Source: a virus. Taken from it: DNA of 64,000 nt. The DNA is taken from the IMG/VR virus record IMGVR_UViG_3300037189_015081, positions 32,001 through 96,000 of that record, one strand, 5' to 3'. The notes beneath the pieces were generated by a model. That model was not told the DNA's origin, made no database searches, and saw only the letters and a list, made by a program, of their open reading frames with translations. Of this stretch, positions 28,406 through 47,901 are shown one piece after another (position 1 is the stretch's first letter; every line of letters begins with the position of its first letter). The translations under genes and the position numbers were made by a program.

Positions 28406-29048
28406 CGTGCTAATCGCAACACCAGGAAGAATGCTGCACGCCGAATACGTGCAGTCCCTTGTCGAAACCTGTGCAGCACTCGACCAGCAACACATCACAT
28501 ACAAGTTCCTGAACAAATACTCGAGCCTTGTTGCGTCCGCTCGTGAACTCACAATCCTGGACTCGTACTCACATGAGTACGGACGGGTCAATGAGGTTGC
28601 GTCCGGGAAATACAAGTACAAGAAGATCATGTGGATCGACTCGGATATCTCATGGGAACCGCACGAGTTTCTGAGACTCTACCAGAGCGACAAGGACATC
28701 ATCGGTGGACTCTATCAGACGGGTCCAGACGGAACGGTCGCCGTGTCAATGAACGACAAAAACGGGAACCCGAGATTTGTGAACAAGAGCGAGTTCATCC
28801 TTGACGCTGAACCGATCAAGGTAGACGGGTTAGGTTTCGGCTTCCTGTGTGTCGGTGCAGGTGTCTTTGAAAAGATGCAGCGACCATGGTTCAAGACGAG
28901 AACAATGCAGTGGCCGGACGTTCCATACGAGACTGATATGGGTGAGGACTACTCCTGGTGTGTTGGCGCCAAGGATGCTGGTTTCGATATTTGGCTCGAC
29001 CCGCTTGTGAATGTTGAGCACCACAAGGAAACCATCTACATGATATAA
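28389..29048 (+). CDS. GT-A fold glycosyltransferase
   Basis: VLIATP, MWIDSDI (DxD), GFGFL and GEDYSWC...H motifs. Confidence 0.8.
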   Translation: MQQNFDVLIATPGRMLHAEYVQSLVETCAALDQQHITYKFLNKYSSLVASARELTILDSYSHEYGRVNEVASGKYKYKKIMWIDSDISWEPHEFLRLYQSDKDIIGGLYQTGPDGTVAVSMNDKNGNPRFVNKSEFILDAEPIKVDGLGFGFLCVGAGVFEKMQRPWFKTRTMQWPDVPYETDMGEDYSWCVGAKDAGFDIWLDPLVNVEHHKETIYMI

Positions 29049-29055
29049 TAGAATC

Positions 29056-29430
29056 ATGAATGACGAACAAGAGCTGACCGCTGAGGCGGAGGCAAAAACC
29101 GAACCGACAAAACCAATCAAACCACGACGCACATCAAATGACGACCCTGCCGGGTACAAAGGTGGACGACGCGTAACACGCCAATCCCGATGCGGATGGT
29201 GCATGGACGACCTGCACGAAAAATGCAAACACGAAATCGCGCACTTCGACAAGCTCAGCATTTGCGCCTGCGACTGCAACAATGACTGGACACCACGCGA
29301 CCTTGGTAGCGGTGAAATCATCGACACTCCACGACCAGCAGTCGAGGACTTGGACAGCGAAGACGATGATGAAACCCAGGAACCAGCAGCATCCAAGCCA
29401 CACACCGTGAGACGCAAGACGACGCACTAA
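29056..29430 (+). CDS. Zn-binding hypothetical protein
   Basis: TGATATAAT-N6-ATG start; CGWC...H..C...CACDC. Confidence 0.7.
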   Translation: MNDEQELTAEAEAKTEPTKPIKPRRTSNDDPAGYKGGRRVTRQSRCGWCMDDLHEKCKHEIAHFDKLSICACDCNNDWTPRDLGSGEIIDTPRPAVEDLDSEDDDETQEPAASKPHTVRRKTTH

Positions 29431-31479: not shown

Positions 31480-31668
31480 ACTAGAACTGGAGTGGACTTA
31501 TGGACAGCTTCTAACTTCCCTGTGGGGTTACTAGGAAGTTGGTTTCGTGTCGCTGGCGCGTGTTATATAAATCCATGATATAACTGGCGCAAATTCCGCA
31601 AACACCTGATATAATTCTGTTATGGCGTTGCAACCCAGCATGCCTGTTGACGGAAGTGATATCACTAC

Positions 31669-32460: not shown

Positions 32461-32566
32461 TTAAGCCAGCTTCCTGGTGGGTACACGGAAGAGGCTTGAT
32501 GCTACCCCATCCCGATCCGAAACCGTGCCTGATATAATTGACACGTATCCAACCCAAGGAGGAAAA

Positions 32567-32740
32567 ATGGCAAAGTACAAGATCTACGCAACCAAGACGA
32601 TTACGCTTGAGGCGATCGTCGATGCTGAAAACGAATTCGAGGCATGGACTGCTTCGGATGAGCTCATCACCGATGACTTCGATCAGGTCAACACCGTGTT
32701 CAAGATCGATGAGATCGTGTTCCAAGATCACCTGATATAA
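32567..32740 (+). CDS. Cassette gene, hypothetical
   Basis: AGGAGG RBS; the stop codon lies inside the next motif copy. Confidence 0.7.
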   Translation: MAKYKIYATKTITLEAIVDAENEFEAWTASDELITDDFDQVNTVFKIDEIVFQDHLI

Positions 32741-32795
32741 TAGATATTGCTTCACAAGAGGCAAAATCCGAATGACGAAACGAAACGAGGACAAC

Positions 32796-32990
32796 ATGGA
32801 TCCTTTTGAGTGTGAAATCGAAGGCTGCTTCAACTCAGCCATGCAGGACGCAACACTTTCCAGTGAAACCGAGGGCGATGAAACCCTGCAGCTCTGTGAC
32901 GAGTGTCTCGAGTTCTTCAAGGAAGAGCTCGAGTATGAGATCGTCAAGATCGAACGCTACAACTCGACGTGGACAGGCGACTCCGAATAG
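32796..32990 (+). CDS. Cassette gene, acidic Cys-containing protein
   Basis: GAGG RBS; CEIEGC...LCDEC. Confidence 0.65.
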   Translation: MDPFECEIEGCFNSAMQDATLSSETEGDETLQLCDECLEFFKEELEYEIVKIERYNSTWTGDSE

Positions 32991-33062
32991 ATACCTGATA
33001 TAATTAGATATATCAACGCGGAAACCCAAAATCCGCAATCCGAACGACGAAAGGAAACGCCC

Positions 33063-33377
33063 ATGGACGTTACCATCACCTCAGATAAAGAACGCGCCTG
33101 GTCCAAATTCAAGTCGACCAAGTACGACCACCCCTACCGTGAGAGCCGCGTGTTCGTCGACTTTGGCGAGAACGTGTGGGAACACCTGCAGAACCGCAGG
33201 AACCGTCCCTACACGACGCTCAAGCCTCTCATCGCTGCCGCACTTCGTGAGCGCGGCATTCCCTTCACCAAGCTCTCATGGAACCGCTATGCGGGATGCG
33301 GCATGTGCCCCTGCTCCGGTGGGTTCATCATCGAGGGTGGACAGACTGGCCACGACCTCTGGGTCGCGGTCTCCTAA
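33063..33377 (+). CDS. Cassette gene, hypothetical
   Basis: Motif plus ACGACGAAAGGA leader; WNRYAGCGMCPCSGGF. Confidence 0.75.
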   Translation: MDVTITSDKERAWSKFKSTKYDHPYRESRVFVDFGENVWEHLQNRRNRPYTTLKPLIAAALRERGIPFTKLSWNRYAGCGMCPCSGGFIIEGGQTGHDLWVAVS

Positions 33378-33480
33378 ACCAGGCGCCAGGTCGCGCATCC
33401 CCCCAGTGCGGCCTGGCACCTGATATAATTAGAACATAGCAACACCAACCCAATATCCGTAACGACGAAAGGAGTCCATC

Positions 33481-33909
33481 ATGGGCTACTACGTAAAGAT
33501 CAAAGAATCCACATTCCGAATTCCCGCCGCAAACCTCGACGCAGCACTTGTCGAGCTCAAGGCACTCAACCACAAGCCAGACGTCGAAAAGCACGGTGGC
33601 CACTTCAACAAGGATGGCGCCAAGGACGTTCGCTGGTTCTCGTGGATGCCGGAAGATTACGACAAGCACGTCAAGACCGCTGAAGAGGTTTTCGTTCTTC
33701 TCGGTTTCGAGTGCGAACAGGACCCGGCGACTGGTGATCTTCTCATCACCGACTACGACAATAAGACGGGTCAGGAGGAGCTCTTCCTTGACGCGGTCAA
33801 GAACCTGGTCAATCCAGACTCGTTCATCACCTGGATGGGTGAGGAAGGCGAGATGTGGCGCTGGACTCCTGAAGGAGTCTGGGAACCCGTCATCAGCTGG
33901 CGCAAATAA
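33481..33909 (+). CDS. Cassette gene, hypothetical
   Basis: Motif plus leader; MGY start; W.GEEGE.WRW. Confidence 0.75.
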   Translation: MGYYVKIKESTFRIPAANLDAALVELKALNHKPDVEKHGGHFNKDGAKDVRWFSWMPEDYDKHVKTAEEVFVLLGFECEQDPATGDLLITDYDNKTGQEELFLDAVKNLVNPDSFITWMGEEGEMWRWTPEGVWEPVISWRK

Positions 33910-34001
33910 CCACGACAGGAGCGTCTGCCATGCGGCAGGCGCTCCACTGTCGTAGGCACCTGATATAATTAGCACATAGCGTAACGACGAAAGGACACGC
34001 C

Positions 34002-34409
34002 ATGACTACAAACCCAATCACCTACATCTACGACCCGGCTCAGATGGAAGCCATCTTCGAGGAGCTCACCCGTGAGGGTGGCGAGTACGAGGTAAACGCC
34101 ATTTGGAACACCAAACGCATCTACGACGTTGACGCCCAGAAGTGGATTGACGTCGAGAACCAGACGCACGACACCTTCATCATCAATGACGTGAGCTACC
34201 AGTGGTACCACGGTCACAACATGAAGCACCCGCAGACACCCACGCTCGTCGCGTTCTGGACGTCCAATCACCGCGAGGATGACTGGGACGAGCACGAGGT
34301 CGAGATCGACGCGACTGCGGCTGAGGTCTACGCCTTCATGCGTAGCGTCAATGGCTACGACTTCTATGATGGTCCCGACACCATCGCTGAGGCGCGAGGT
34401 GAGAGGTAA
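34002..34409 (+). CDS. Cassette gene, hypothetical
   Basis: Motif plus leader. Confidence 0.75.
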   Translation: MTTNPITYIYDPAQMEAIFEELTREGGEYEVNAIWNTKRIYDVDAQKWIDVENQTHDTFIINDVSYQWYHGHNMKHPQTPTLVAFWTSNHREDDWDEHEVEIDATAAEVYAFMRSVNGYDFYDGPDTIAEARGER

Positions 34410-34588
34410 TGACACTGCGCGCGGTCATCGACGTCTACTGTGGATACTGTGATGGTGTCCATGAGACGCAGCCCGTCGAGGGAATCATCGATGGTGACAG
34501 TAAGTCCTTCAGCTGGATCGCGTTCTGCCCTGAATGTGATCTCCACATCGAGGGACAGGACTCGATCGAAAAGCTGAATCTCAAGTAG
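34409..34588 (+). CDS. Small CxxC...CxxC protein
   Basis: TAATG coupling; CGYC and CPEC. Not in the ORF track. Confidence 0.65.
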   Translation: MTLRAVIDVYCGYCDGVHETQPVEGIIDGDSKSFSWIAFCPECDLHIEGQDSIEKLNLK

Positions 34589-34634
34589 GCACCTGATATA
34601 ATTAGATATATCAAAACGACGAAAGGAAAATGCC

Positions 34635-34892
34635 ATGGGAATTTACTACCAGGACATCATCAAGGTCGAGGAGAAACTCTTCGAGGACCTGACCACTGCA
34701 CTCGAGTGTGCACGCGCGGACTACGACAAGTGGTGCACGGTGAGCAAGAGCTACACCGAGCTGCGTGACGTTTTCCGTGACGACGCGACTGGCGAGATCG
34801 TCATCAAGTACAAGTACGATGACGACCTTGACGAGTCGGAGCGAGAGGATCGCTTCAGCGTCGAGTGGATGGAAATCGCGACCAGCGTCTAA
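34635..34892 (+). CDS. Cassette gene, hypothetical
   Basis: Motif plus leader. Confidence 0.75.
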   Translation: MGIYYQDIIKVEEKLFEDLTTALECARADYDKWCTVSKSYTELRDVFRDDATGEIVIKYKYDDDLDESEREDRFSVEWMEIATSV

Positions 34893-34939
34893 GACCTGAT
34901 ATAATTAGATCATCAACAAAACGACGAAAGGAAACTGCC

Positions 34940-35404
34940 ATGGAAAATATCCAGAGCAAGATCATCGGAAAAGCTCTCTACCTTGAGCTCCGCAACGGAA
35001 ACTACACCAACCAAATCATTCTGATGCCGGAAGGCACCAGCGCGGAGGGAAAGTACGTGCCCACAACCACGTACCGTCGCCGCATCTCTGAGTCGACGCC
35101 GCGCAAAACCTGGCGCGTCATGTCCAGCCTGTTCCGCAGCGAGCGAACCATCGATGGAACCCTCGTTCCGCTCGGTCGCGAGCACGCGCTCGCCACAGTC
35201 ACAGATCGCCTTGGCTACACCAAGGGACTGTTCGACCAGCTCGTCAGTGGAGGGTACAGCATCTACAAGCAGCCCATCACTGTCGAGGTTACTCCCGAGG
35301 ACCTGGTCGACGTGTACAACGCGAAGACTCCCTACAAGGTCATCGCGCGAATCACCCGTTCGCGCCGTGCGCTTGGCTTTGGCGAAGACCTCTTCGTCAA
35401 GTAG
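34940..35404 (+). CDS. Cassette gene, hypothetical
   Basis: Motif plus leader; start corrected to MENIQ. Confidence 0.75.
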   Translation: MENIQSKIIGKALYLELRNGNYTNQIILMPEGTSAEGKYVPTTTYRRRISESTPRKTWRVMSSLFRSERTIDGTLVPLGREHALATVTDRLGYTKGLFDQLVSGGYSIYKQPITVEVTPEDLVDVYNAKTPYKVIARITRSRRALGFGEDLFVK

Positions 35405-35452
35405 CACCTGATATAATTACATTACCCAAACAAACGACGAAAGGACACGCCC

Positions 35453-36433
35453 ATGAATCCCACGGATTATGATGTGTTATACCCAGGACTCGGAGAGATC
35501 CTGAACTCAGCTGCCACCCAGTCGGTGAACGACGACCTCGCGACACTGCTCGCGAAGTACATGGTCGACCAGGGCAAGGCAGTCGCAAAGACTCCCACCA
35601 AGAAGAAGGTTGTTCCAGTCGTGAACGCTGACGCACTGCTTGGCTCATCCAAGTACAAGCGCCCGAACGGCGACGACTACTTCACCCGCAAGTGGGGCGA
35701 GCACGATGACGTCGAGGTTGTGCGCAAGGCGCGCGACAAGTCACAGTTCATCCTTCTGTACGGTGCGCCAGGTTGCGGTAAGACCGCACTGGTCGAGGCC
35801 GCCTTTGGTGAAAACCTTCACACCGTTCTCGGTAGCGGTGACACCGAGGTCTCCGACCTTGTAGGTGGATACGTCCAGACGCCGTCTGGTGGATTCGTCT
35901 GGGAGGATGGTCCTCTGCTCAAGGCTGCAATCGCTGGTGAGCCGCTGCTCATCGATGAGGTTGGTCTCATCGACCCGAAGGTCCTGTCGATCGTGTACGG
36001 TCTGATGGATGGTCGCCGTGAGTACACTGTCACTGCGAACCCTGAGCGCGGTACCGTGAAGGCGAAGGATGGTTTCTACGTCATCGCCGCCACGAACCCG
36101 AACGCTCCTGGTGTTCGACTCAGCGAGGCGCTCCTGTCGCGATTCACCATGCACGCTGAGATGACGACTGACTGGTCACTCGCCAAGAAGCTTGGCGCTC
36201 CTGCCACCATCGTCACTGCGGCGCAGAACCTCGCGAAGAAGCAAAAGGAGGGCGAGGTAAGCTGGGCACCACAGATGCGCGAGCTTCTCGCGTTCCGTGA
36301 CGTCTCTGCGGACTATGGCACCAAGTTCGCTATCGCGAACCTGCTGGCTGCTTCTCCTGAGATGGATCGCCCGGTCGTCGCTGACGTGTTCACTCGCGTC
36401 TTTGGCGAGGAGTGCCGTCCAGCCAAGATCTAA
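35453..36433 (+). CDS. MoxR/CbbQ/CobS-like AAA+ ATPase
   Basis: GAPGCGKT (Walker A), WEDGPL, LLIDE (Walker B), AATNP and LSEALLSRF. Confidence 0.9.
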   Translation: MNPTDYDVLYPGLGEILNSAATQSVNDDLATLLAKYMVDQGKAVAKTPTKKKVVPVVNADALLGSSKYKRPNGDDYFTRKWGEHDDVEVVRKARDKSQFILLYGAPGCGKTALVEAAFGENLHTVLGSGDTEVSDLVGGYVQTPSGGFVWEDGPLLKAAIAGEPLLIDEVGLIDPKVLSIVYGLMDGRREYTVTANPERGTVKAKDGFYVIAATNPNAPGVRLSEALLSRFTMHAEMTTDWSLAKKLGAPATIVTAAQNLAKKQKEGEVSWAPQMRELLAFRDVSADYGTKFAIANLLAASPEMDRPVVADVFTRVFGEECRPAKI

Positions 36434-36483
36434 CAAGCCCGGTGCCGCGGTTTCTTCGTCGTTCCCGCCGCACCGTTCCCCAA

Positions 36484-36516
36484 GGAGGGGGCCTGATTTG
36501 GGTTCAGGCTCCCTCC
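36484..36516 (+). terminator. Hairpin preceding a motif copy
   Basis: GGAGGGGGCCTGA...TCAGGCTCCCTCC. Similar hairpins near 33383, 33912, 38370, 38723, 39458, 40260, 40308, 42637 and 46195. Confidence 0.6.
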
Positions 36517-36578
36517 ATCTAAAACGACCTGATATAATTAGAACATAGCATAACGACATCTTGACGGAAGGACACGCT

Positions 36579-38363
36579 ATGGCACACATTCACTCTTCAA
36601 ACACCCGCGCAGAGGCAACGCCATCCAAATGGCTCCGACTTGGCGCACAGCTCGGTGAACTCGTAAACACCTGGGCACATCGCACTGACCTGGTTGCCTA
36701 CGTTGGTCCAGGCGCTGGTGGTCAAGCTCCCGCATGTTACAACCCGCGGCTCGCCGAGGTCGAGGTAAACGTAACCGTGGCATTCGGTGCGGCAACCACT
36801 CCAGAGATGATTGACAACATCACCAAGCGCGACACGCAGTTCGAGTACCCCAAGGCAACAGGCGCCATCTACCACGAGGCGCTTCACGCCAAGTACTCAC
36901 GCTGGTCGCTCGAGGATGCAGCACGCGAACTCAGCGAAAAGGAGCTCCAGGCAATCAACCTTCTCGAGGAAACGCGCATCGAGGCAAATGGCGTCAATGA
37001 CGTCCCGAAGAACCAAGTGTTCCTTCGCGCCTGCGCACTGGAGATTGTTCTCGCTGACGCCGAGGAAGGACTCGGAAAGATGACGTCCACTCGTGCGGCT
37101 GCCCAGCTCGCTGGACTCACACTCGCGCGCGTTGACGCTGGTGTCCTTGAGCGCAGCGACGTGGACATCATCGCTGACGTTCTCGATGGGATGCTCGGCG
37201 AAGACCTCATCATCAAGCTGCGTTCCATCTGGAATCGTTTCCAAATGCACGACCAGCACTATGACGCAACGCCGCTCTACGACCTTGCCCGTGAATGGGT
37301 TGCGGTCGTCGAGGAAGCCGCCAAGGATGACGAGCCAGAGGGCACTGATGGCGAGGGTGACGAAGTACCCGAACACATCAAAGAACTTCTCGACGCTCTT
37401 GTAAATGATGCCGAGGCAACTGGGTTTGCTGCCGCAGACCAGGCTGCCGACCAGGCTGAAGGTGAGGCGTGGATCGAGATCGCTGGTGGAAAGTCGCGCG
37501 CGGCAAAGGAGCGTCAGGAAAACGCCAGGACTGCCACCACTGTCTTCAGCAAGGGCACTGGCCCGATGGCAACCAGCAAGTCAAGTTCGCGTCTCTATGA
37601 GAAGCGCAAGCCAACCTCTGAGGAGCGCGTTGCCGCGGTCAAGGTGGCGACCATGCTTGAGAAGGCGAAGTACCGTGAGCGCGACATGCACGAGATCCAG
37701 TCCGTGACTCCTCCCGGTCGCCTGCGCACTCGAGCTCTTGTTCAGGGCGCGGCACTCAAGTCTAAGGGAATCATGGCGCAGACCGAGCCGTGGCGTCGTC
37801 ACGTGCGCAAGCACACCGATGAGCCAACGCTCAAGGTTGGCGTGATGGTCGACATCTCTGGTTCTATGGGTTCCGCGATGGTTCCAATGGCTGTCACCGC
37901 GTGGGTCATGTCTGAGGCGTCTAAGCGCGTTCAGGCACGCGCCGCGATGGTGTACTACGGTAGCGACGTGTTCCCGACCTTGAAGCCAGGTCAGAGTCTC
38001 GACCAGGTGCACGTGTATACTGCGCCTGACGGAACCGAGAAGTTCGACAAGGCGTTCAAGGCGATCGACGGTGCGCTCGATCTTCTGCACGGTGATGGCG
38101 CCCGCTTGCTCGTCGTGGTGAGCGATGGACACTACACCTACGAGGAGACCGCGCGAGCCGAAGCGTGGGTCAAGCGTTGTCACGCTGAAGGCGTTGCCGT
38201 CCTGTGGTTGCCGTTTGACTCTGGCATGATGGCTCAGCGAGTCTGCAAGGGCACTGACGCGATTGTGCTCAGCGGTCGACTGGATCCCGCCGAGGCAGCA
38301 ACCAAGATTGGTCAGGCTGCCGCGATGGCGCTGACCAAGGCAGGCGCACGCGCGGCTGCATAA
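36579..38363 (+). CDS. VWA (CobT-like) protein with N-terminal HExxH motif
   Basis: YHEALH...NLLEETRIE; MIDAS motif DISGSM...T...VVSDG. Confidence 0.88.
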   Translation: MAHIHSSNTRAEATPSKWLRLGAQLGELVNTWAHRTDLVAYVGPGAGGQAPACYNPRLAEVEVNVTVAFGAATTPEMIDNITKRDTQFEYPKATGAIYHEALHAKYSRWSLEDAARELSEKELQAINLLEETRIEANGVNDVPKNQVFLRACALEIVLADAEEGLGKMTSTRAAAQLAGLTLARVDAGVLERSDVDIIADVLDGMLGEDLIIKLRSIWNRFQMHDQHYDATPLYDLAREWVAVVEEAAKDDEPEGTDGEGDEVPEHIKELLDALVNDAEATGFAAADQAADQAEGEAWIEIAGGKSRAAKERQENARTATTVFSKGTGPMATSKSSSRLYEKRKPTSEERVAAVKVATMLEKAKYRERDMHEIQSVTPPGRLRTRALVQGAALKSKGIMAQTEPWRRHVRKHTDEPTLKVGVMVDISGSMGSAMVPMAVTAWVMSEASKRVQARAAMVYYGSDVFPTLKPGQSLDQVHVYTAPDGTEKFDKAFKAIDGALDLLHGDGARLLVVVSDGHYTYEETARAEAWVKRCHAEGVAVLWLPFDSGMMAQRVCKGTDAIVLSGRLDPAEAATKIGQAAAMALTKAGARAAA

Positions 38364-38475
38364 CAAGCTCCAGTGCGGGGACGGTTACCTTCCGTCAATC
38401 GTCCCGTCCCTGCACTGGGTTCTCTGTCAGGGCGACCTGATATAATAAAACTAACAACGACGAAAGGACAGCATT

Positions 38476-38715
38476 ATGGCTGAACAAATCTTCATCTCAC
38501 ACAACGGATCCGGAACCTTCTTCGGTCTGGACGACGACGTGCAGCTCATCAGCGCGACGGACGTCGAGAACAATGACAGCGAAGCACTTGTCTCCGGTGA
38601 CATCTCCGACGTTGCGGTTGACTACGGGTACACGATTACGCCCGAGCTCGCACAGATTCTCTACGAGGTAGCAATGAACTATCACGAAAAGGGAGTAGTA
38701 CCCGTGATACAATAG
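38476..38715 (+). CDS. Cassette gene, acidic hypothetical
   Basis: Motif plus leader. Confidence 0.7.
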   Translation: MAEQIFISHNGSGTFFGLDDDVQLISATDVENNDSEALVSGDISDVAVDYGYTITPELAQILYEVAMNYHEKGVVPVIQ

Positions 38716-38841
38716 TATCTACGGCCGCGGAGGCTACCACTAGTTTCCGCGGCCAAACACATACAACTGAATACCCGCGGCTGATGCGGGACTGTGTGCA
38801 AGAAGAAGCGCGGGAAATACCCACGCAGGAAGGAGAACACA

Positions 38842-39438
38842 GTGACAAACAAGCAAACCAAAAAAGAACAACTAAACCAGCTCCGCGAAAAGTGGAACTG
38901 GGACTCCAAGGAAGCGATCGAAGACCGGGTCACTTTCATTCTCAACAAAGCCCGCCAGGATTACCTGCGGGTGTACGGCAAGGCGGACGGGATCGCACTG
39001 GCGCGGTATCAGTCCGAGCTACTGCACGAAGATCGTGCGGTCGGGACGCAGCGTGCGATCCGACGACAGGAGCGGGCACGGGCTCGTAACCTGATCCTTG
39101 AAACCTTCAAGGATTTCCCACGGGACACTGTCACTGGCATGATTGCAGCCGGGGTGGTAGACGAGATTACCGGGTCAGAGCCCGAGGACGTCTTCGCCCA
39201 GATTGAGCTCGATCCAAGCGTGGCACGCGTCGAGACAGGACCAATCAGCCTGCCTAGCCCGGGGGATATGACGGGTGCTGACGGGTCACTATTTGACGAC
39301 CTGACTAGCCCGACGAACCTTGGCGCGCTTTTTGGCAACCGGGTTGCCTTGTCAAGCAGGTCAGCGAAGGCTCGTGAGATCGTGCAAGCGGTTTCTGGAT
39401 CTGTCCAGTACCCTACAACAGAGTACCTAGCCTCGTAG
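38842..39438 (+). CDS. Hypothetical protein
   Basis: AGGAG RBS with GTG start; the 3' third overlaps a repeat element. Confidence 0.6.
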   Translation: MTNKQTKKEQLNQLREKWNWDSKEAIEDRVTFILNKARQDYLRVYGKADGIALARYQSELLHEDRAVGTQRAIRRQERARARNLILETFKDFPRDTVTGMIAAGVVDEITGSEPEDVFAQIELDPSVARVETGPISLPSPGDMTGADGSLFDDLTSPTNLGALFGNRVALSSRSAKAREIVQAVSGSVQYPTTEYLAS

Positions 39439-39546
39439 GTTCAAGCTACTCGTAACGGAAGTGGTCACCAGGTTACTGGTGGCCATTTCTGTCATAGGTG
39501 CCTGATATAATTAGATATATCAACGCAATGACGAAAGGAGCCGATT

Positions 39547-39765
39547 ATGGCTGCTAATGAAATCCCTGAAACTCTGGTCATCAACCTCAAGTTCTCTGTC
39601 GATCGAGACTGGATCGAGGAATACATCGCCGATGGCGAGGAAGTCACCTTGCAGATGATGCTTGACGCTCTTCGCGAACAGGCACTCGAATGGCTCGCAG
39701 ATGACGCGTACAACATGGTTCAGACCGCTGACGTCTTCGACGGAGACGGAAACCAGGTCTGCTAG
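39547..39765 (+). CDS. Cassette gene, acidic hypothetical
   Basis: Motif plus leader. Confidence 0.7.
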   Translation: MAANEIPETLVINLKFSVDRDWIEEYIADGEEVTLQMMLDALREQALEWLADDAYNMVQTADVFDGDGNQVC

Positions 39766-39921
39766 TTGATTGGGTGTCACAGGCACCTGATATAATTAGA
39801 TACATAAGCCCAAACCAAACGGTTTGGATATCCGGAGCGAAAGCACCTGATATAATTAGATACATCAAGCCAAACGGTTTGGTAAACGACGCAAGACAAA
39901 AACCGAAAGGACGTGATGATT

Positions 39922-40248
39922 ATGGCTACTGTCGAGATCACCACTACCATTACCACCCAGACCGAGGTCGCTGACCTCACCGGAACGAACGCAGCGGCCT
40001 TGCTCGCCGAGTTCGAGGAAACCAAGGCTGCCATCAAGGCGCTCGAGGAAAAGAAGGATGCTGCTGAAGCTCTCCTTCGCGAGCTGCTCGGTGACGCGGA
40101 GGTTGCCACCATCAACGGCGAGAAGCTGTTCAAGCTCGTACACGGCATGAACACTAGTTTCGACCGCGAGCTCATGAAGAAGGCATTCCCTGAAGCCTTC
40201 AGCGCGACGCTCAAGAAGAAGGCTTACACCTACATCAAGGCGATGTAG
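39922..40248 (+). CDS. Cassette gene, coiled-coil protein
   Basis: IKALEEKKDAAEALLRELLGDAE...SFD..LMK..FPE.F resembles the C-termini of YqaJ-associated phage proteins. Confidence 0.7.
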   Translation: MATVEITTTITTQTEVADLTGTNAAALLAEFEETKAAIKALEEKKDAAEALLRELLGDAEVATINGEKLFKLVHGMNTSFDRELMKKAFPEAFSATLKKKAYTYIKAM

Positions 40249-40390
40249 GTTCCCAGACTGGATACCGCACGTATGCAGAATGTTGCACAACGCGTGCGGT
40301 ATCCTCCGGCCCTGGTGAGAATCCCCCCTCTCATCAGGGCCATTTCCATTAGTGCGCGGTATCGTAGACACCAGGTCAACAAGGAGAATC

Positions 40391-40561
40391 ATGAACACAG
40401 TTGCTGAGTTACTCAGTGTGGTAAAGACACTCGCGCCTTACGCGCGGATTGAGCAATATCTTGATGGCAACATTGTCATCGTCCTCAATGCGCGGTTGGC
40501 AGATGACAACGCGCACCTTGAACCTCTGGACGCTGACGTTTTTGACGCGGCAGGAGAGTAG
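40391..40561 (+). CDS. Hypothetical protein
   Basis: AAGGAG RBS. Confidence 0.6.
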   Translation: MNTVAELLSVVKTLAPYARIEQYLDGNIVIVLNARLADDNAHLEPLDADVFDAAGE

Positions 40562-40631
40562 ATACCGCGCGGTCATTTGAAGTCGCCTGATATAATCATT
40601 ACAGCAATACAAAATGACGAAAGGAGTCCTC

Positions 40632-40844
40632 ATGGACGCTACCAAACACGACTGCGAAGACGCCGGTGGGAACCTTGACTACTGGGCAGAGACCTTCACC
40701 TGTGAGGACTGCGGCGCGGTACGCGCGGCAACTCAGAGCGAGCTTGATGACTACCGTGCCATGCTCCAGGAGGACTTTGAAAGGGACATGGCAATCATCT
40801 ACCAGCAAGAACTCCGTGACGCCTCTGACGCTCTGGAGAGCTAG
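40632..40844 (+). CDS. Cassette gene, Zn-ribbon-like
   Basis: Motif plus leader; HDC...CEDC. Confidence 0.7.
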   Translation: MDATKHDCEDAGGNLDYWAETFTCEDCGAVRAATQSELDDYRAMLQEDFERDMAIIYQQELRDASDALES

Positions 40845-40922
40845 CGCCCCGAGACTCGAGTACCTGATATAATAGGTACTAGCAACACGGAAACACAAAG
40901 ACAAATGACGAAGGGAGTTGCC

Positions 40923-41105
40923 ATGGCAATTCGACTGACAGACGGAAACGCGTTCGCCATCATCGGTGAGGGACGCGAGGAACTCAAAAAGCAGGGACGC
41001 AGCGATGAAATCGCCCAGTTCACTGCTGAAATGACCGCAGGTGACTACAATCACCTTTTGCAGACCATGCTCCGCTGGTTCCCAGACGTAGAGGTTGGTG
41101 AGTAA
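40923..41105 (+). CDS. Cassette gene, conserved phage hypothetical
   Basis: DGNAFAIIG...GDYNHLL. Confidence 0.75.
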   Translation: MAIRLTDGNAFAIIGEGREELKKQGRSDEIAQFTAEMTAGDYNHLLQTMLRWFPDVEVGE

Positions 41106-41453
41106 ATGAAGACAGCGCTTCGCGTCAACGCGGATCTCACCACTGAGGTCCTCGACCTGACCAATGACGAATACGACCAGCTCAGCAGAGCGGTGGATGG
41201 CTGGATTCAGGCCGTCAACCTAAACCCAAATCTCACCATCTGGTGTAATGAGGAAGGCAAGCTAAACGGCTTGCCAGTCAACATCGCGGGAACAGCGGTC
41301 TGGGAGGAATACTTCGGCCGCACGGACGTAATCGTCGGAAACGTCGTATTCACTGGCACACCAGATGAGAATGGCGACACTCTTCCGCTCGCCGACTTCC
41401 AGGTTGCACAACTCCAGAAGATCGTCGCCAGCGTTCGCGAGCTGACGCAGTGA
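41106..41453 (+). CDS. DUF3846-like protein
   Basis: VDGWIQAV...CNEEGKLNGLPVN...DVIVGNVVFTG. Confidence 0.85.
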   Translation: MKTALRVNADLTTEVLDLTNDEYDQLSRAVDGWIQAVNLNPNLTIWCNEEGKLNGLPVNIAGTAVWEEYFGRTDVIVGNVVFTGTPDENGDTLPLADFQVAQLQKIVASVRELTQ

Positions 41454-41641
41454 CCGAGCGCAAGAAGGCGAAAGGTGCGGGCGTCTGGGAAATCCTGGAC
41501 GCTCACACCGGCGCACGTCTGAACAAGTTTCGTGCGCGGCGTCAAGCAGATGTCGATCGAAACATGCAAATCGTTCTCGTGGGTCTCGGTAAACAGCCAG
41601 ACGACGTCAAACTCGTGTTCGTCGCAGACTGGGAAGACTAG
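41450..41641 (+). CDS. Hypothetical protein
   Basis: GTGA overlap. Confidence 0.6.
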   Translation: MTERKKAKGAGVWEILDAHTGARLNKFRARRQADVDRNMQIVLVGLGKQPDDVKLVFVADWED

Positions 41642-41702
41642 ACCGCGCGGTAACTAGAGTACCTGATATAATTAGAATATCAGCACGACGAAAGGACACC
41701 AC

Positions 41703-41873
41703 ATGAACACTGTAAAAGAAGTTCTGGAACTCCTGGAAACAAAAATAACCGAGACTCAGGAAGAAATCGACGCGGCAGACGCCGCAGGCGAAACTTCAGA
41801 GCTCGAGTACCTTGACGGTCTCATGGAAGCGTACACGCTTATCGAAACCGCAATCAAAACCAAGAGAGACTGA
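41703..41873 (+). CDS. Cassette gene, small acidic helical protein
   Basis: Motif plus ACGACGAAAGGA leader. Not in the ORF track. Confidence 0.7.
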   Translation: MNTVKEVLELLETKITETQEEIDAADAAGETSELEYLDGLMEAYTLIETAIKTKRD

Positions 41874-41880
41874 GGTAGCC

Positions 41881-42093
41881 ATGACAGAAAACATCTGCAC
41901 GGACTGCGGGCTAACGCCAGGCTATGAAATAGCCCAGCACTCTCTCAACAAGGCCGCCTTTATCAAACTTGACTCTGTGAAAGGCGTCATGATGACCGCA
42001 AACCAGCCAGACTACGCTGCGGCCATTGAAAAGGTTCTCACGGAATGGCGAACGCACGCTCTTCCAGCCTGTGATCCGTTGGCAATATCGTGA
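41881..42093 (+). CDS. Hypothetical protein
   Basis: GAGG RBS; CTDC. Confidence 0.6.
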   Translation: MTENICTDCGLTPGYEIAQHSLNKAAFIKLDSVKGVMMTANQPDYAAAIEKVLTEWRTHALPACDPLAIS

Positions 42094-42320
42094 AAGCCGT
42101 CTACTGGATCCAGGCCAGAATGAAAGGTGCCGTTTGGTACCTTGAACGAGGATACATACCAGTCTGGCTGTATGCGGCAATCCACTTCACACTCTGGGCG
42201 ATTGGGTTTACATTACTCGTTCTTCTCCAGCCGCTTATTCTTCTCGCCGACAGGCGCGAATCCCGGTCCCGACAGGGACTAGAAAATGAAACAATGACGA
42301 AAGGACAGGTGGTCGTATGA
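42090..42320 (+). CDS. Small membrane protein
   Basis: Overlap coupling and a TM helix. Confidence 0.5.
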   Translation: MKAVYWIQARMKGAVWYLERGYIPVWLYAAIHFTLWAIGFTLLVLLQPLILLADRRESRSRQGLENETMTKGQVVV

Positions 42321-42616
42321 CAACCGAAATCGAAACAGCAACTGCACCCACGGCAACAGCGAAGAAGCTCGTTCGCGTAAAACCATACACGCGAACTGAA
42401 GAGCTCCCTGAACTTGCCGAGGGAGTGACCCTTCCCGCAGGATACACGCCCGCCTACTTCCGTAAGCGCAAGACCCTTGCGGTTTTGCGCGCGGTTGACC
42501 GAACGCACTACTTGGTGTTCGACACCTCAACTGGAAACAAGTTGAAGGTGGGAACCTGCAAGGAAGCGTCGTCCACGATGAGCGAGATTCGTCGAGGACT
42601 CAAGACCTTCGCGTAA
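42317..42616 (+). CDS. Hypothetical basic protein
   Basis: ATGACGAAAGGA leader; hairpin terminator follows. Confidence 0.7.
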   Translation: MTTEIETATAPTATAKKLVRVKPYTRTEELPELAEGVTLPAGYTPAYFRKRKTLAVLRAVDRTHYLVFDTSTGNKLKVGTCKEASSTMSEIRRGLKTFA

Positions 42617-42745
42617 ATGCCTCCTCGCGAAGAAAAAGGAGAGACCCGGACTGGACCCCGGGTCTCTTCCTTTATGCGGCTGATGACCAGTCTGGAGTGC
42701 ATGATATAATTAGAATATCACGGCAACCAGACGGAAGGAGATGCC

Positions 42746-42916
42746 ATGGCTAAAAACAAAAAGCCTAAGGGCACGGAGAATAAGGCGTACATCGAAGGTA
42801 TGCGTCAGATTCGCCGCTCCAATGCCGCGGGAACGCATGACAGCCGTCCCAACCGCGAACGCACTCGTTCCGCTGCGCGGAACAAGGCAATTCACGAATA
42901 TCGTGACATCTCGTAG
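42746..42916 (+). CDS. Cassette gene, 56-aa basic protein (MAKNKKPKG...RRSNAAGTHDSRPNRERTR)
   Basis: Variant motif plus GACGGAAGGAG leader. Different frame from the ORF-track call. Confidence 0.65.
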   Translation: MAKNKKPKGTENKAYIEGMRQIRRSNAAGTHDSRPNRERTRSAARNKAIHEYRDIS

Positions 42917-42992
42917 CAAATAGAGTAAATACTCCAAAGCACCTGATATAATAGATATATCAGCACAACGACGCATGACGGAAGGAACCATC

Positions 42993-43226
42993 ATGAATGA
43001 AAAACCAAAGTACATCATCCGACGAGCCATCATTGGACTCGCAAGCGTACCATTCATCGCCTCCATCTACACCATCGGATACTCACTGCTCGTACTCGCA
43101 GGAGTAAACCCAACCAGCACGTTCGACGGTGTAATGGTGAACGGTGTCATCATCGGATTCGCGGTAGCAATCGTCTTCACCTTCATCAAGCAGGTAGTGC
43201 GATTCGCGGCATGGATCACGGAGTAA
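42993..43226 (+). CDS. Cassette gene, two-TM membrane protein
   Basis: Motif plus leader. Confidence 0.7.
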   Translation: MNEKPKYIIRRAIIGLASVPFIASIYTIGYSLLVLAGVNPTSTFDGVMVNGVIIGFAVAIVFTFIKQVVRFAAWITE

Positions 43227-43330
43227 CGACATGACAACCAGCACGTACGCAATCTTCGTATCAATTCCGTTCACCAAACTTCAACTCGAGATCGAGATCG
43301 ATCTCCCGCTCTTCAGAAAGGCAGGACGCC

Positions 43331-43603
43331 ATGAGTCTTGAAAATCTACAAATCATCTCAACCGATCACCACCGCAACGGTGTCGGAGGACACCCGTTCC
43401 GCGTCGCACTTGTCGACGACCCGAACGAAGGCGACACGAAACTCGTCATCATGTTCGCGGAACCAGGTTACACCGCGGTGCTATCGCTCGACAAGCTGAT
43501 TCAGGACGAGGACATCGCCTTTGGATCAAACTCGTGGAGAGGCGACAAATACGAAGACGCTCTCCGCGACAAGCTCTTCTCCAGCGATGACGAGGACGAC
43601 TAA
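43331..43603 (+). CDS. Conserved phage hypothetical protein
   Basis: HHRNGVGG.PF...NSWRGD.YE. Confidence 0.7.
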   Translation: MSLENLQIISTDHHRNGVGGHPFRVALVDDPNEGDTKLVIMFAEPGYTAVLSLDKLIQDEDIAFGSNSWRGDKYEDALRDKLFSSDDEDD

Positions 43604-43605
43604 CC

Positions 43606-43935
43606 ATGACCTCGACAGTTTCGATCCGTACGATCCTTGACCAAATCGTTTCCGGTGAACACGATGACCATCTTGCGGTTATCATGAGCACCGCGAGTAC
43701 GCGGCTAACCAGAGTACGCGGCAGCGTTGAGTATGGAATCGGCGACAGGGTCAGATTCAACTCAGCCTGTGGAACCAAGTACCTGATTGGACACACTGCC
43801 CAGGTCGTGGGCAAACGACGCACCAAGGTCGTCGTCAAACTCGACAAACCAACAGGTCGATTCATTCGCATGACATCCGATGGACCAGTCAGCGCGGAAA
43901 TCACTGTTCCACCTGCAATCATTGACCTCGCCTAG
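43606..43935 (+). CDS. SH3/KOW-like beta-barrel protein
   Basis: IGDRVRF...KYLIG...VV...RTKVVV. Confidence 0.65.
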   Translation: MTSTVSIRTILDQIVSGEHDDHLAVIMSTASTRLTRVRGSVEYGIGDRVRFNSACGTKYLIGHTAQVVGKRRTKVVVKLDKPTGRFIRMTSDGPVSAEITVPPAIIDLA

Positions 43936-43988
43936 TCAATACAGCCATTTTCCACACCTTCTTGATACTATTCACCTAAGGAGTTACC

Positions 43989-44153
43989 ATGACAGAACCA
44001 TTGATAAACGCCTGGTACCCTGACGGAACCTGGGTTGGCTCATTCGTAAGCGCGGAATACGCAAAGGAATGGCTAACCAACGCGGGTTACAAGATCGACG
44101 AGTGCGAGGTTTCAAACCGTCGCTACGTTCGTCCTGAAAAGAAAGAAGAATAG
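43989..44153 (+). CDS. Small hypothetical protein
   Basis: TGATACTAT promoter and AAGGAG RBS. Not in the ORF track. Confidence 0.65.
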   Translation: MTEPLINAWYPDGTWVGSFVSAEYAKEWLTNAGYKIDECEVSNRRYVRPEKKEE

Positions 44154-44157
44154 CAAC

Positions 44158-44307
44158 ATGGAACCATGGACAATTCTCGGTTGGATTCTCGTTTTCCTCG
44201 CCGTGTTCGTAGGGGTTGTGTTCTGTATCGCCGTTATCGCCGCGCTATGGATCTCGATCAAGGGTGCAGGCGCCGACCTTCGCGGTAAAAGCCACAATAA
44301 GAACTAG
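44158..44307 (+). CDS. Small single-TM protein
   Basis: MEPWTILGWILVFL...; operon packing. Confidence 0.55.
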   Translation: MEPWTILGWILVFLAVFVGVVFCIAVIAALWISIKGAGADLRGKSHNKN

Positions 44308-44458
44308 CGCAATGGACAGCAAACTTTCCAGCGCGGTTATCGCCTTGGCCTGCGCGGTTGCCATCGTGATTATTCTTGCTATCTCAGCAACAGGTGCCAG
44401 GTAAAATCTTCCCAACCTACCTGATATAATAAGTAATACAAGAGACGAAAGGACGCAC

Positions 44459-44734
44459 ATGGACAAAGAAAAAGTCATCTACTCTGTGCCAGTCAATGTC
44501 AAGCGCGCCGTAAAAATTACCAAGGAAAAAAACGCGCAAGCCGAGGCACTAGCCAAGGCCGCTGTTGAGCCAGCGCCACTCGGGCCAATCAGATCCTGGA
44601 TCAAGTATCACACGACCAAGGACGAATACGGTTTCGTACCAGTCGAAACCCGTGAAGCCTACATCATTGTAGGTATCTGCTACATCATTTTCCTACCCGT
44701 TGCCATTTGCGGCATCGTAATTGCCTTAACCTAA
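44459..44734 (+). CDS. Cassette gene with C-terminal TM helix
   Basis: Motif plus GACGAAAGGA leader. Confidence 0.7.
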   Translation: MDKEKVIYSVPVNVKRAVKITKEKNAQAEALAKAAVEPAPLGPIRSWIKYHTTKDEYGFVPVETREAYIIVGICYIIFLPVAICGIVIALT

Positions 44735-44743
44735 GGAGCAAAC

Positions 44744-45025
44744 ATGAAGGATTACTCAACATACTTCGCCGGATACCGCTACCGTCGCTACGCGGCAGCC
44801 TTGTGGCTCGCTGATCTGCTTTGGGCGGCCGGAATAACAGTCATCGCGGTTTTTGACGCAAATGACTGGTTTGAAATTCTCGCAGCCGCTCTTCTGATCT
44901 TTGCGGGCATATCGTCAATCACGGTTGCCGCTCTACACTTCGTTCACCTTTCACGCGCCGAGTTTGCAAAGATTCGACCGCTTATCGGGGTGGTCAGCCC
45001 TTTCGACTGGAGGTACGGACAGTGA
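44744..45025 (+). CDS. Two-TM membrane protein
   Basis: AAGGAG RBS. Confidence 0.65.
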   Translation: MKDYSTYFAGYRYRRYAAALWLADLLWAAGITVIAVFDANDWFEILAAALLIFAGISSITVAALHFVHLSRAEFAKIRPLIGVVSPFDWRYGQ

Positions 45026-45162
45026 AAAACGCAATACTGTTCAGTACCTACGGAATGACAGCCCCGTGTCACCATTGCGGCAGCCCGGTTCGCGAAGGAA
45101 TAAAGTTCTGCGACCCGTACTGCAGCGTGAGCTACAAGGCGAAACAGCAAGGTGCCAAATGA
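45022..45162 (+). CDS. Small Zn-finger protein
   Basis: CHHCG...FCDPYC; overlap-coupled at both ends. Confidence 0.55.
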   Translation: MKNAILFSTYGMTAPCHHCGSPVREGIKFCDPYCSVSYKAKQQGAK

Positions 45163-45467
45163 CACGCGGCACTGACCAGCGAGAAAAGATCTACGTTCGC
45201 CAAGCCTGTGAGATCTGCAAGGGTGACGAGGTTCTCGTATACGAGGCAGGCGACCAGCTGCTTTGCGCGGAACACACGCGCAAACATCTGCGCGCCAACC
45301 CGACCAAGCAAACCTGTGACACCTGCGGGTCAGATCAAAACGTGTTCCGCGACCCATCACATCGTCGCAATGAGTATCTCTGCATGAGCTGTCACAATGT
45401 GAACGGATTCAAGGTTCAGGACTCTGTCACGATGCGTGCGCTGCGTAACATCGCGGGAGGTTCATGA
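45159..45467 (+). CDS. Double Zn-finger protein
   Basis: CEIC..LCAEH and CDTC..LCMSCH. Confidence 0.65.
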   Translation: MTRGTDQREKIYVRQACEICKGDEVLVYEAGDQLLCAEHTRKHLRANPTKQTCDTCGSDQNVFRDPSHRRNEYLCMSCHNVNGFKVQDSVTMRALRNIAGGS

Positions 45468-45649
45468 TGGGAGAAATCCAGCAGGTCGCCGAGTTGTATC
45501 TTGGCGGTAAATCACTCGTCGAGGTTGCAGCGGCGATGGACATAACGTACGGCAAGGCGAGAAAGTTGCTTGCCGCTTCAGGAACAGAGCTTCGCGACCC
45601 GTCGAAGCGACTAGTTGGGCGCACGCGCCCGGAAAAGGAAAAGAAATGA
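45464..45649 (+). CDS. Small HTH protein
   Basis: LYLGGKSLVEVAAAMDITYGKARKLL..SGTELR. Confidence 0.75.
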   Translation: MMGEIQQVAELYLGGKSLVEVAAAMDITYGKARKLLAASGTELRDPSKRLVGRTRPEKEKK

Positions 45650-45813
45650 GATTCACTCGTTTTATTCGCTCGATCGTTTGGCCCGCAGTACTTGCCGTCG
45701 CGTTTGGCATCGCGGCACTTGCCGTCGCGTTTCTTTCATCGGGCGATCTTGCCCAGGTAATCGCGCTTTCATCAGCCGCGGTAACATCTGCTCTTCTCGC
45801 AACGCGCGCATAA
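45646..45813 (+). CDS. Small two-TM protein
   Basis: ATGA overlap; hydrophobic. Confidence 0.6.
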   Translation: MRFTRFIRSIVWPAVLAVAFGIAALAVAFLSSGDLAQVIALSSAAVTSALLATRA

Positions 45814-45938
45814 CCTGACAAAAAGGTTTCAAACTTTTTTGAACTTTTTTAGCAAAATGACTCCAAATGAGCAATTGACCTGATATAATAGATCTATCAA
45901 CGCCAAACGGCTAGATAAAACGACGGAAGGACAATGCC

Positions 45939-46181
45939 ATGGAAAAGAAATTCTGCCTCCTCAAGATCTCGGACGGTACTCGCGGAGCGAGCGGCAAGAA
46001 GAAGATCTACGAAGTAACTGTCAGCGGTCGCAAGGTGACCATGAGCTGGGGAATGGCTGAGAAGCCAAACCGTCAGACCAAGGTCGAATACGGCTACACG
46101 GAAAACGACGCGATGCAGATCGCGACCAACAAGGTCGGCGAGAAGCTCATCAGCGGATACCAGATGGCGTACAGCGTCTAG
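45939..46181 (+). CDS. Cassette gene, WGR-like domain
   Basis: KIYEV.V....V..SWG...A....K..EK...GY. Confidence 0.7.
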   Translation: MEKKFCLLKISDGTRGASGKKKIYEVTVSGRKVTMSWGMAEKPNRQTKVEYGYTENDAMQIATNKVGEKLISGYQMAYSV

Positions 46182-46298
46182 CAAAAAATCTCCAGGAGAG
46201 GAGACGCCGAAAGGCGTCTCCTTTCTCCATTTGTCGCGCAACTCCAAAGTACCTGATATAATAGATACATCAGCAAGCCAAACAAACAAGGAGTCAAT

Positions 46299-46421
46299 AT
46301 GAAGCGATACATCGACATCGAGGAAATCCAACTCATCGCAGGAGTAACTGCAACCATTCTCGCCATCGCCGGATTCGTCACCTTCGTGGTAACCATCGCT
46401 TACCTGGCAAGCGTGCGCTAG
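46299..46421 (+). CDS. Cassette gene, 40-aa single-TM peptide
   Basis: Motif plus AAGGAG RBS. Not in the ORF track. Confidence 0.6.
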   Translation: MKRYIDIEEIQLIAGVTATILAIAGFVTFVVTIAYLASVR

Positions 46422-46490
46422 TAGGCGCGCCGCTCCAAAGGCACCTGATATAATTACATACATAACGACGCGACGACCAGAGGAGACGCC

Positions 46491-47069
46491 ATGACATCAA
46501 CACTCATCACCAACGCGGCAAGCGAAAAACAAATCAACTTCATCAAGACACTCGTCGACGAACGAGAAATGACGCAGGACGAGCGCGACGCACGACGCAT
46601 GACCACCCACCTGCTCACCAAGAAAACCGCGAGCGACCTCATCGACACCCTGCTCAAGCTACCAAAGCGCACGGACAAGGTCGCCTTCACTTCAACCGCG
46701 ACAGGTTCACTGCAGGAGGCGTTAGCCAAGGCGCCCAAATCCAAGTACGCGATACCCGTCGATGAAATCGACATCGTTGTCGAAAACACGCCGATGCATG
46801 GTGACCTGCTCTTCATCGAAATCCGCGAATACATGAACCGCCTGTTCATGCGCCGCCTGACCGGAGCACCCGGCGGATTCAGCCGCTGGCACGTAAACCC
46901 CAAGGATGCAACCACCATCGTGGAACACATCGCCAAGGACCCATACCGTTACGCAAAAATCTTCGGTAAGCACTACAGCTGCTGCGGAAGTTGCGGCGCA
47001 GAACTAACCGACCCGGTAAGCCGCGAGCTCCAGCTCGGCCCGGAATGCCGAAAAAAGTTCGGAAAATGA
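46491..47069 (+). CDS. Cassette gene, DUF6011-like Zn-finger protein
   Basis: ASEKQINFI N-terminus; CGSCGAELTDPVSRELQLGPEC. Confidence 0.8.
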   Translation: MTSTLITNAASEKQINFIKTLVDEREMTQDERDARRMTTHLLTKKTASDLIDTLLKLPKRTDKVAFTSTATGSLQEALAKAPKSKYAIPVDEIDIVVENTPMHGDLLFIEIREYMNRLFMRRLTGAPGGFSRWHVNPKDATTIVEHIAKDPYRYAKIFGKHYSCCGSCGAELTDPVSRELQLGPECRKKFGK

Positions 47070-47871: not shown

Positions 47872-47901
47872 CAATAAAAACAAACCCGAAGGAGCAGTAT
47901 C

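Follow-up and report, generated by a model that had tools for sequence, protein, structure and literature searches.

In the host-takeover module of Bacillus phage SPO1, small early genes stand in an array, and every one of them has its own strong promoter of the host type along with a strong ribosome-binding site. T4-type phages carry promoter-early stem-loop (PeSL) cassettes, which combine strong sigma-70-like promoters with stem-loops (Arbiol et al. 2010, PMC2839356). In these cassettes a stop codon stands upstream of the promoter and a Shine-Dalgarno sequence follows it; the cassettes cluster ahead of genes whose function is unknown, and they bring about modular shuffling and the formation of mini-circles (PMC2839356; Comeau et al. 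2014, PMC4122927). Another repeated phage element, the stoperator of Cluster A mycobacteriophages, is described in the accessible part of PMC9283540 as an asymmetric site bound by a monomeric repressor, at which elongation is stopped. Here we analyze a short motif repeated through an array of small genes in a 64,000-nucleotide stretch of a virus record (IMG/VR record IMGVR_UViG_3300037189_015081, record bases 32001-96000; hereafter the window, to which coordinates refer unless stated otherwise). The motif is probably a perfect extended -10 promoter (TGnTATAAT) without a -35 box and with ACC conserved in front, which the phage reuses about 24 times.

The best reading of the array is a set of promoter cassettes for the host RNA polymerase that invite comparison with the PeSLs of T4-type phages. 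In both, a near-consensus promoter of the host type recurs many times across a variable region whose small genes have no known function, with an upstream stop codon just before each copy and a Shine-Dalgarno sequence and start codon just after; stem-loops adjoin or overlap the -10, here at some of the copies, and breaks in homology between close relatives are concentrated at these promoters. Unlike the PeSL cassettes, the copies here belong to a phage with an actinobacterial host and lack both a -35 box and an AT-rich upstream element; GC-rich stem-loops stand at 9 of the 24 copies, and no mini-circles or recombinants were seen at the motif in contigs, the material examined. Judged by layout, the resemblance is architectural, without sequence homology. 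The SPO1 module shares the layout of one promoter per small gene, in an unrelated phage with an unrelated host. Like stoperators, as described in the accessible part of that source, the motif is a short site that recurs through the genome of an actinophage and has to do with the control of transcription; unlike them, the repeat would here be the promoter itself, and no repressor was found in searches of the record. The array, taken as a series of cassettes with host-type extended -10 promoters in a phage not yet cultured, is, on these comparisons, a system of an already known kind. It suggests that the promoter-per-gene cassette architecture of T4-type phages, which infect Gram-negative hosts, recurs in actinophages, and it provides a testable promoter consensus and a likely start site for uncultured freshwater actinophages, and hence for the primary RNA polymerase of their hosts.

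The repeated unit and its genomic setting

The conserved unit, (A)CCTGATATAAT, is present in 24 copies, on the + strand only, between positions 29039 and 46454. Its core, C[C/A]TGATATAAT, likewise occurs 24 times in the window, always on the + strand, against an expectation of 0.37. A count over the entire record gave 25 forward and 0 reverse occurrences of TGATATAAT; of the 30 TATAAT hexamers in the forward direction, 25 are part of it. In each of the 24 copies a TATAAT-like -10 hexamer has TGn directly upstream (TGATATAAT); TGn joined to TATAAT is the extended -10 consensus that primary sigma factors recognize. A sequence logo built from all 24 copies gave about 2 bits per position across CCTGATATAAT, 1.3 bits for the preceding A, and only 0.2 to 1.0 bit at each of eleven downstream positions, with no signal in the -35 region and no conservation upstream of -5. 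A promoter scan for two hexamers caught 1 of the 24 copies (that at 42700), which marks the copies as -35-less promoters.

The host RNA polymerase with its primary sigma factor would read all promoters of the array, presumably early, and each copy would drive one small, mostly unknown gene or a short gene group in the stretch that separates the lysis genes from the terminase gene. The sigma-factor domain sigma70_r2 had no match when the record was searched in six frames.

The copies are listed below together with their gene starts. "Right arm" gives the number of matches to TATATCA, scored at a core of 5 or 6, in the downstream half of a palindrome discussed further below; hairpin energies refer to GC-rich hairpins upstream of the copy.

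29039..29060, + strand: copy reading CATGATATAAT-AGAATC-ATG; right arm 3/7; the ATG at 29056 is the 7th nucleotide after the -10
31605..31626, + strand: copy with right arm 3/7; a near-copy, TGATATAAC, lies 31 nucleotides upstream (31576)
32528..32549, + strand: copy ahead of gene start 32567; right arm 2/7
32731..32752, + strand: copy ahead of gene start 32772; right arm 4/7
32994..33015, + strand: perfect palindrome TGATATA-ATTAGA-TATATCA; gene start 33063; right arm 7/7
33419..33440, + strand: copy followed by TAGAACATAGCA; gene start 33481; right arm 3/7; hairpin -28.2 kcal/mol
33959..33980, + strand: copy with TAGCACATAGCG; gene start 34002; right arm 3/7; hairpin -35.1 kcal/mol
34592..34613, + strand: perfect palindrome; gene start 34635; right arm 7/7
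34895..34916, + strand: copy with TAGATCATCA; gene start 34940; right arm 4/7
35407..35428, + strand: copy ahead of the AAA_5 ATPase gene (35453-36433); right arm 3/7
36528..36549, + strand: copy ahead of a VWA-like gene (36579-38363); right arm 3/7; hairpin -28.9 kcal/mol
38436..38457, + strand: copy ahead of gene start 38476; right arm 4/7
39501..39522, + strand: perfect palindrome; gene start 39547; right arm 7/7; hairpin -30.7 kcal/mol
39786..39807, + strand: first of a tandem pair, 60 nucleotides apart; right arm 5/7
39846..39867, + strand: second of the tandem pair; gene start 39916; right arm 6/7
40586..40607, + strand: copy ahead of gene start 40632; right arm 5/7
40863..40884, + strand: copy with another palindrome, AGTACCT-GATATAAT-AGGTACT (from 40858), of different centre; gene start 40923; right arm of the main palindrome 4/7
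41662..41683, + strand: copy with TAGAATATCA; gene start 41703; right arm 6/7
42700..42721, + strand: copy with CATGATATAAT and TAGAATATCA; gene start 42746; right arm 6/7
42942..42962, + strand: perfect palindrome with a 5-bp core; gene start 42993; right arm 7/7
44420..44441, + strand: copy ahead of gene start 44459; right arm 4/7
45879..45900, + strand: copy with AGATCTATCA; gene start 45939; right arm 6/7
46252..46273, + strand: copy with AGATACATCA; gene start 46299; right arm 6/7; hairpin -26.9 kcal/mol
46444..46465, + strand: copy with TACATACATAA; gene start 46491; right arm 5/7
33360-33418, 33900-33958, 36470-36527, 39440-39500, 42640-42699 and 46190-46251: GC-rich hairpins upstream of copies

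After each member of the tandem pair (39786-39900) there is a similar leader, which contains a small CCAAACCGTTTGG-like hairpin; the promoter and its leader appear to have been duplicated in tandem.

The record comprises 116,681 bp, with 87 bases repeated at both ends. The portal protein shares 69.5% identity with its counterpart in DSL-LC01, a metagenome-assembled Actinomycetia phage, and approximately 61 to 63% with the portals of large Microbacterium phages; by its sequence, the record is that of a freshwater actinobacterial phage, kin to DSL-LC01. In the window, tail-fibre and lysis genes are followed by a minus-strand cluster of small genes, the rightward array (approximately 28 to 48 kb), likewise of small genes, a tRNA-Pro gene, and the terminase and portal genes. 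Thirty-one of 42 array open reading frames (ORFs) had no Pfam match at an E value of 0.01 or below, and 16 of 21 had no PHROG match. The minus-strand cluster (21704-27438), about 15 small leftward genes that include a DUF7455 protein and a protein with a weak HTH_23 match, contains zero copies of the motif and must therefore depend on other promoters.

For comparison, 80 related loci were fetched from IMG/VR with the AAA_5 ATPase of the array as the query. The same promoter family is present in most of them, with copies nearly all on the forward strand; in some loci, such as L053 (TTGACT-N17), a canonical TTGACT is added at 17-bp spacing. A megablast search of positions 32000-47000 against phage records gave zero matches. 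The word "promoter" occurs 0 times in the accessible text of the DSL-LC01 paper (PMC10611076), and a literature search on freshwater actinophage promoters, which was not aimed at this exact motif, returned no relevant titles. Microbacterium phage Pumpernickel (L097, 1-32000), a cultured relative, carries its small-gene array at the left end of a linear genome. Its first 32 kb contain zero TATAAT hexamers, and the word repeated most often there, GTGATAGACT with 5 occurrences, is a high-GC kind of extended -10.

Gene context and the likely transcription start

A GAAAGGA-type ribosome-binding site and a start codon lie 39 to 70 nucleotides downstream in 21 of the 24 copies, and the stop codon of the preceding gene is often only a few bases upstream of the motif. 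Many leaders between 33041 and 47369 share AACGACGAAAGGA ahead of the start codon. The same words are the top 10-mers in DSL-LC01, and by sequence AACGACGAAAGGA appears to be a ribosome-binding context that is strongly conserved across the phage family.

A census of start codons was carried out on 618 distinct promoter copies of the family, with reading frames of at least 40 codons counted as open. A start codon occupied position 7 after the -10 in 33 copies, 27 of them open, and position 8 in a further 24, 14 of them open. Positions 3 to 6 together yielded 1, and positions 9 to 15 yielded 1 to 11 each, few of them open. This pile-up is the pattern expected of leaderless mRNAs and would place the start of transcription inside the right arm of the palindrome, likely at the 7th or 8th nucleotide after the -10. 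Fourteen of the 24 window copies show a pyrimidine-A step at positions 6-7. One ORF, 29056-29430 (+), encodes a Cys-rich protein of 124 amino acids, has its ATG exactly 7 nucleotides after the -10 of the 29039 copy, and is not preceded by a ribosome-binding site; it is probably leaderless. It gave 16 tblastn matches among the related loci and belongs to no Pfam or PHROG family.

In Actinobacteria, primary sigma factors frequently work with extended -10 (TGn) promoters, and leaderless mRNAs are frequent as well. The motif resembles such promoters in its TGnTATAAT sequence, in a -35 region that would be dispensable, and in a likely start 7 to 8 nucleotides after the -10, where start codons are found in 57 of the 618 copies. 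It is unlike ordinary extended -10 promoters in having 12 bases, including the ACC ahead of the TG, that are invariant in 19 copies, beyond the known needs of sigma, and in having a discriminator that is specific to each genome.

Directly upstream of several copies are GC-rich hairpins of -27 to -35 kcal/mol without a T tract, probably terminators or 3'-end structures of the preceding gene. Hairpins of -20 kcal/mol or stronger precede 9 of the 24 copies, with -18.0 kcal/mol overall against -14.7 kcal/mol in controls (Mann-Whitney p 0.06).

The palindrome in this phage and its relatives

The initial annotation had described the motif as a palindrome, TGATATA-N5/6-TATATCA, overlapping the -10, and had proposed that it is an operator or a tyrosine-recombinase-like site. 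The palindrome is real: four matches, at 32996, 34594, 39503 and 42944, compare with 0 in 100 dinucleotide-preserving shuffles. The first three read TGATATAATTAGATATATCA, and the fourth is the 5-bp-core form TGATATAATAGATATATCA. (The annotation placed its copies at the A of ACCTGATATAAT, 3 nucleotides upstream of TGATATA.) As it also noted, TGAT...ATCA is kept in the copies at 34895, 39846, 41662, 42700, 45879 and 46252, the 40863 copy reads AGTACCT-GATATAAT-AGGTACT, and the right arm is degenerate elsewhere. Right-arm scores over the 24 copies are 7/7 in four, 6/7 in five, 5/7 in three, 4/7 in five, 3/7 in six and 2/7 in one, so that the palindrome is present in 4 copies and partial in about 8 more. 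The overlap with the -10 is complete on the left side, where arm and extended -10 coincide (TG-A-TATA of TGATATAAT). The arm spacing differs by one base among otherwise similar copies, giving cores of 5, 6 or 7 bp.

We considered what the dyad might do. If the motif is a host-type promoter, the left arm TGATATA would consist of the TG element together with bases one to four of the -10 hexamer, and the right arm TATATCA would run from the last discriminator bases across the transcription start into the beginning of the transcript. The commonest downstream version in this phage would then happen to complement the -10 region, which is made easier because both stretches hold the self-complementary ATAT, and the dyad would have no function of its own. 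The palindrome is, on this evidence, best explained as a lineage-specific version of the start-site sequence.

The related loci bear on this directly. Among 36 loci with the same promoter family and at least 10 distinct copies each (541 copies), there were 0 perfect palindromes, and 14 copies reached at least 6/7. When 40 loci were searched for their best inverted repeat, the dyad was enriched at a z above 2 in just four, namely this window, DSL-LC01, L082 and L053. The two arms do not covary: in 631 copies, TGA promoters had 35 TATCA versus 54 TAACA, and TGT promoters had 16 versus 11 (odds ratio 0.45, in the wrong direction, p 0.08). The exact 20-mer palindrome was found in one other IMG/VR contig, as a single copy outside any array; TGnTATAAT occurs there at no more than 3 sites, which are spread over both strands. 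Since the promoters of the relatives lack the dyad, the promoter family works without it, and the dyad is a trait of one lineage.

Several observations weigh against a purely host-type promoter whose dyad is incidental. Within this phage the right arm matches TATATCA at a mean of 4.71 of 7 positions, versus 2.76 (sd 0.19) in 2,000 shuffles; TATATCA ties for the best of all 16,384 heptamers at that place; the best-inverted-repeat search gave a dyad enrichment z of 7.9; and the consensus of the downstream element is the exact reverse complement of the left arm. The shuffle and composition controls ignore kinship among the copies. By locus mean, this phage ranks 1st of 37 loci, the mean of the locus means in the 36 relatives being 3.31. 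DSL-LC01 has an inverted repeat of its own around the -10, GATTC..GAATC, in another register (z 3.3). The 8 nucleotides after the -10 agree at 4.49 of 8 positions within a locus versus 3.34 between loci, a difference of 1.15 that 200 label permutations never brought above 0.15, and such uniformity within a genome is not obviously explained by the host polymerase alone. A search for the T7-type RNA polymerase family gave no match, but its control was silent everywhere too, so that this result is uninformative. Right-arm symmetry thus exceeds composition in this phage, and on that measure the annotation's own condition for dropping its proposal does not apply; as a perfect dyad the symmetry is absent in the relatives.

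These points have to be set against the proposal of an operator, in which a dimeric phage protein would bind TGATATA-N6-TATATCA over the -10 and start site and silence or time the palindromic subset of promoters, copies with weaker right arms being regulated less. The over-representation of the dyad, a consensus equal to the perfect palindrome, the different inverted repeat of DSL-LC01, and downstream elements that are genome specific, as expected if each phage had its own factor, all speak for it. Against it are half-sites spaced variably, perfect symmetry in 4 of 24 copies with 15 of 24 at 5/7 or fewer, the lack of perfect copies among the 541 of the relatives, the 36 of 40 loci without enrichment, and arms that do not covary. 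Nor did searches return a DNA-binding family above its threshold. Sub-threshold matches were obtained to HTH_58 (45464-45649, E 4.6e-4) and HTH_23 (23906-24154, minus strand, E 3.4e-4), an HTH_3 match was weak (E 0.04), and a WhiB match lies outside the window; comparison of the HTH_58 and HTH_23 candidates with solved structures, by sequence search, and with PHROGs gave nothing interpretable. Of the operator claim, then, the enrichment of the dyad in this phage stands, with no counterpart in the relatives, in covariation or in a clear DNA-binding protein, and we regard an operator as unlikely.

It was also conceivable that the palindrome acts as RNA: where transcription of the upstream gene reads through, it would fold and serve as an attenuator or a processing site. 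PeSL stem-loops are reported over the -10 box or just before the start site (PMC2839356), and the 4 perfect copies here fold at -4.7 to -6.7 kcal/mol. Such hairpins are, however, weak and AU-rich, with a mean of -2.2 kcal/mol over the 24 copies and 4 copies unfolded; the arms do not covary, and separate GC-rich hairpins already stand upstream of 9 copies. This role is highly improbable.

We return to the promoter and its start-site sequence, which each phage of the family would carry in a version of its own. Downstream versions in different genomes include AGTACTA, TATCCTA, TAACCTA, TGTACTAT and AGAATCA, and the version here is (T)AGATATATCA; the orthologous promoter ahead of the AAA_5 ATPase gene bears the downstream element of its own genome. 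DSL-LC01 (L009 2415-12150) has 15 copies of GATTCTAAAG-n-TGTTATAAT-n-GAATCA. One of its copies (8880) has AGATCT on both sides. The downstream element was also examined as a direct repeat of the left flank of the promoter, and this was rejected (z -2.2 to 1.7, no enrichment in 40 loci). Concerted evolution of the repeated promoters and a phage-specific factor acting at the start-site region would both explain an element of this kind, which raises the question of how repeated promoters stay uniform within one phage. There is a small chance that the phage's own stretch of 7 to 11 nucleotides, uniform over 10 to 24 promoters, marks a co-evolving phage-specific factor that reads all promoters of the array; such a factor could be a shut-off repressor or a polymerase-bound protein. 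The same promoter repeats could also serve as joints for cassette exchange.

Possible recombination at the promoter copies

Sites of the dif type have arms of about 11 bp around a fixed core of 6 to 8 bp. Like dif, pdif and lox sites, the palindrome has inverted arms around a short asymmetric core (5 to 6 bp), in its 4 perfect copies only, and it had been suggested that a Xer-like recombinase could excise cassettes at it. Unlike those sites, it has arms of 7 bp, where the symmetry ends, and a core of variable length; its left arm is fully explained by the -10 and thus by promoter function, and the full right arm is missing in 20 of 24 copies. The annotation had seen no recombinase in the window, and a six-frame search of the whole record for tyrosine recombinases (PF00589) was blank as well, while the control worked in 14 of 14 genomes. 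We consider a Xer-type site very unlikely and the Xer-like excision of cassettes a false lead that has been removed.

The same proposal could be framed around a phage serine recombinase, and a gene for one is present elsewhere in the record, outside the window (record bases 27703-28410, minus strand; G000:C1:27703-28410; L092:8703-9410). The protein of 235 amino acids has a Resolvase domain (E 2e-34) and the start of a Recombinase domain, and is possibly truncated or part of a mobile element. Genes for a D5-type primase and DUF4406 lie on one side and that for the ribonucleotide reductase small subunit on the other; nothing links this gene to the motif. The exact 20-mer is present once in one other IMG/VR contig, and contigs of two sequencing runs, X1 and X2, contained no joints at any promoter copy, a weak test that used contigs only, those of X2 being short pieces. 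Run X1 contains the stretch in full and may be where this DNA came from. Three joints were seen in X2 contigs (29990/30082, 46835/46917 and 46835/47378), none of them at a promoter copy. Excision of cassettes at a site-specific site, by a Xer-type tyrosine recombinase or a serine recombinase, is accordingly the most improbable of the roles considered here.

Recombination could instead use the promoter core of 12 to 23 bp as short homology, in the manner of PeSL cassettes and without a dedicated recombinase, so that gene cassettes are deleted, duplicated or swapped between phages. This would be compatible with a promoter function. In 14 disjoint pairs of closely related loci, which are relatives and do not include this phage, 44 of 106 internal homology breakpoints fell between -15 and +60 nucleotides of a promoter, versus 8.4% at random (p 2.7e-20). 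A shared gene (45853-46068 in the window) stands in a different order in L011 and L012, the pair at 39786 and 39846 is a tandem promoter pair, and the promoter and stem-loop cassettes of T4-type phages mediate such shuffling and mini-circles (PMC2839356). Promoters mark gene boundaries, however, where mosaic joints are expected anyway, and the enrichment is no proof of cause; the contigs of the two runs showed no joints at the copies, and strong upstream hairpins are confined to the 9 copies noted above. A role of the promoter core in homology-based recombination is plausible, and we put forward a homology hot spot of this kind tentatively, as something that may, but need not, accompany promoter function. 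Homology between relatives and the window often starts exactly at a promoter, as at 34895 and 45877.

The tRNA-Pro(TGG) gene beyond the array (47798-47872) was matched by several unrelated contigs of high depth in run X1, which are presumably tRNA genes of the host or of other organisms.

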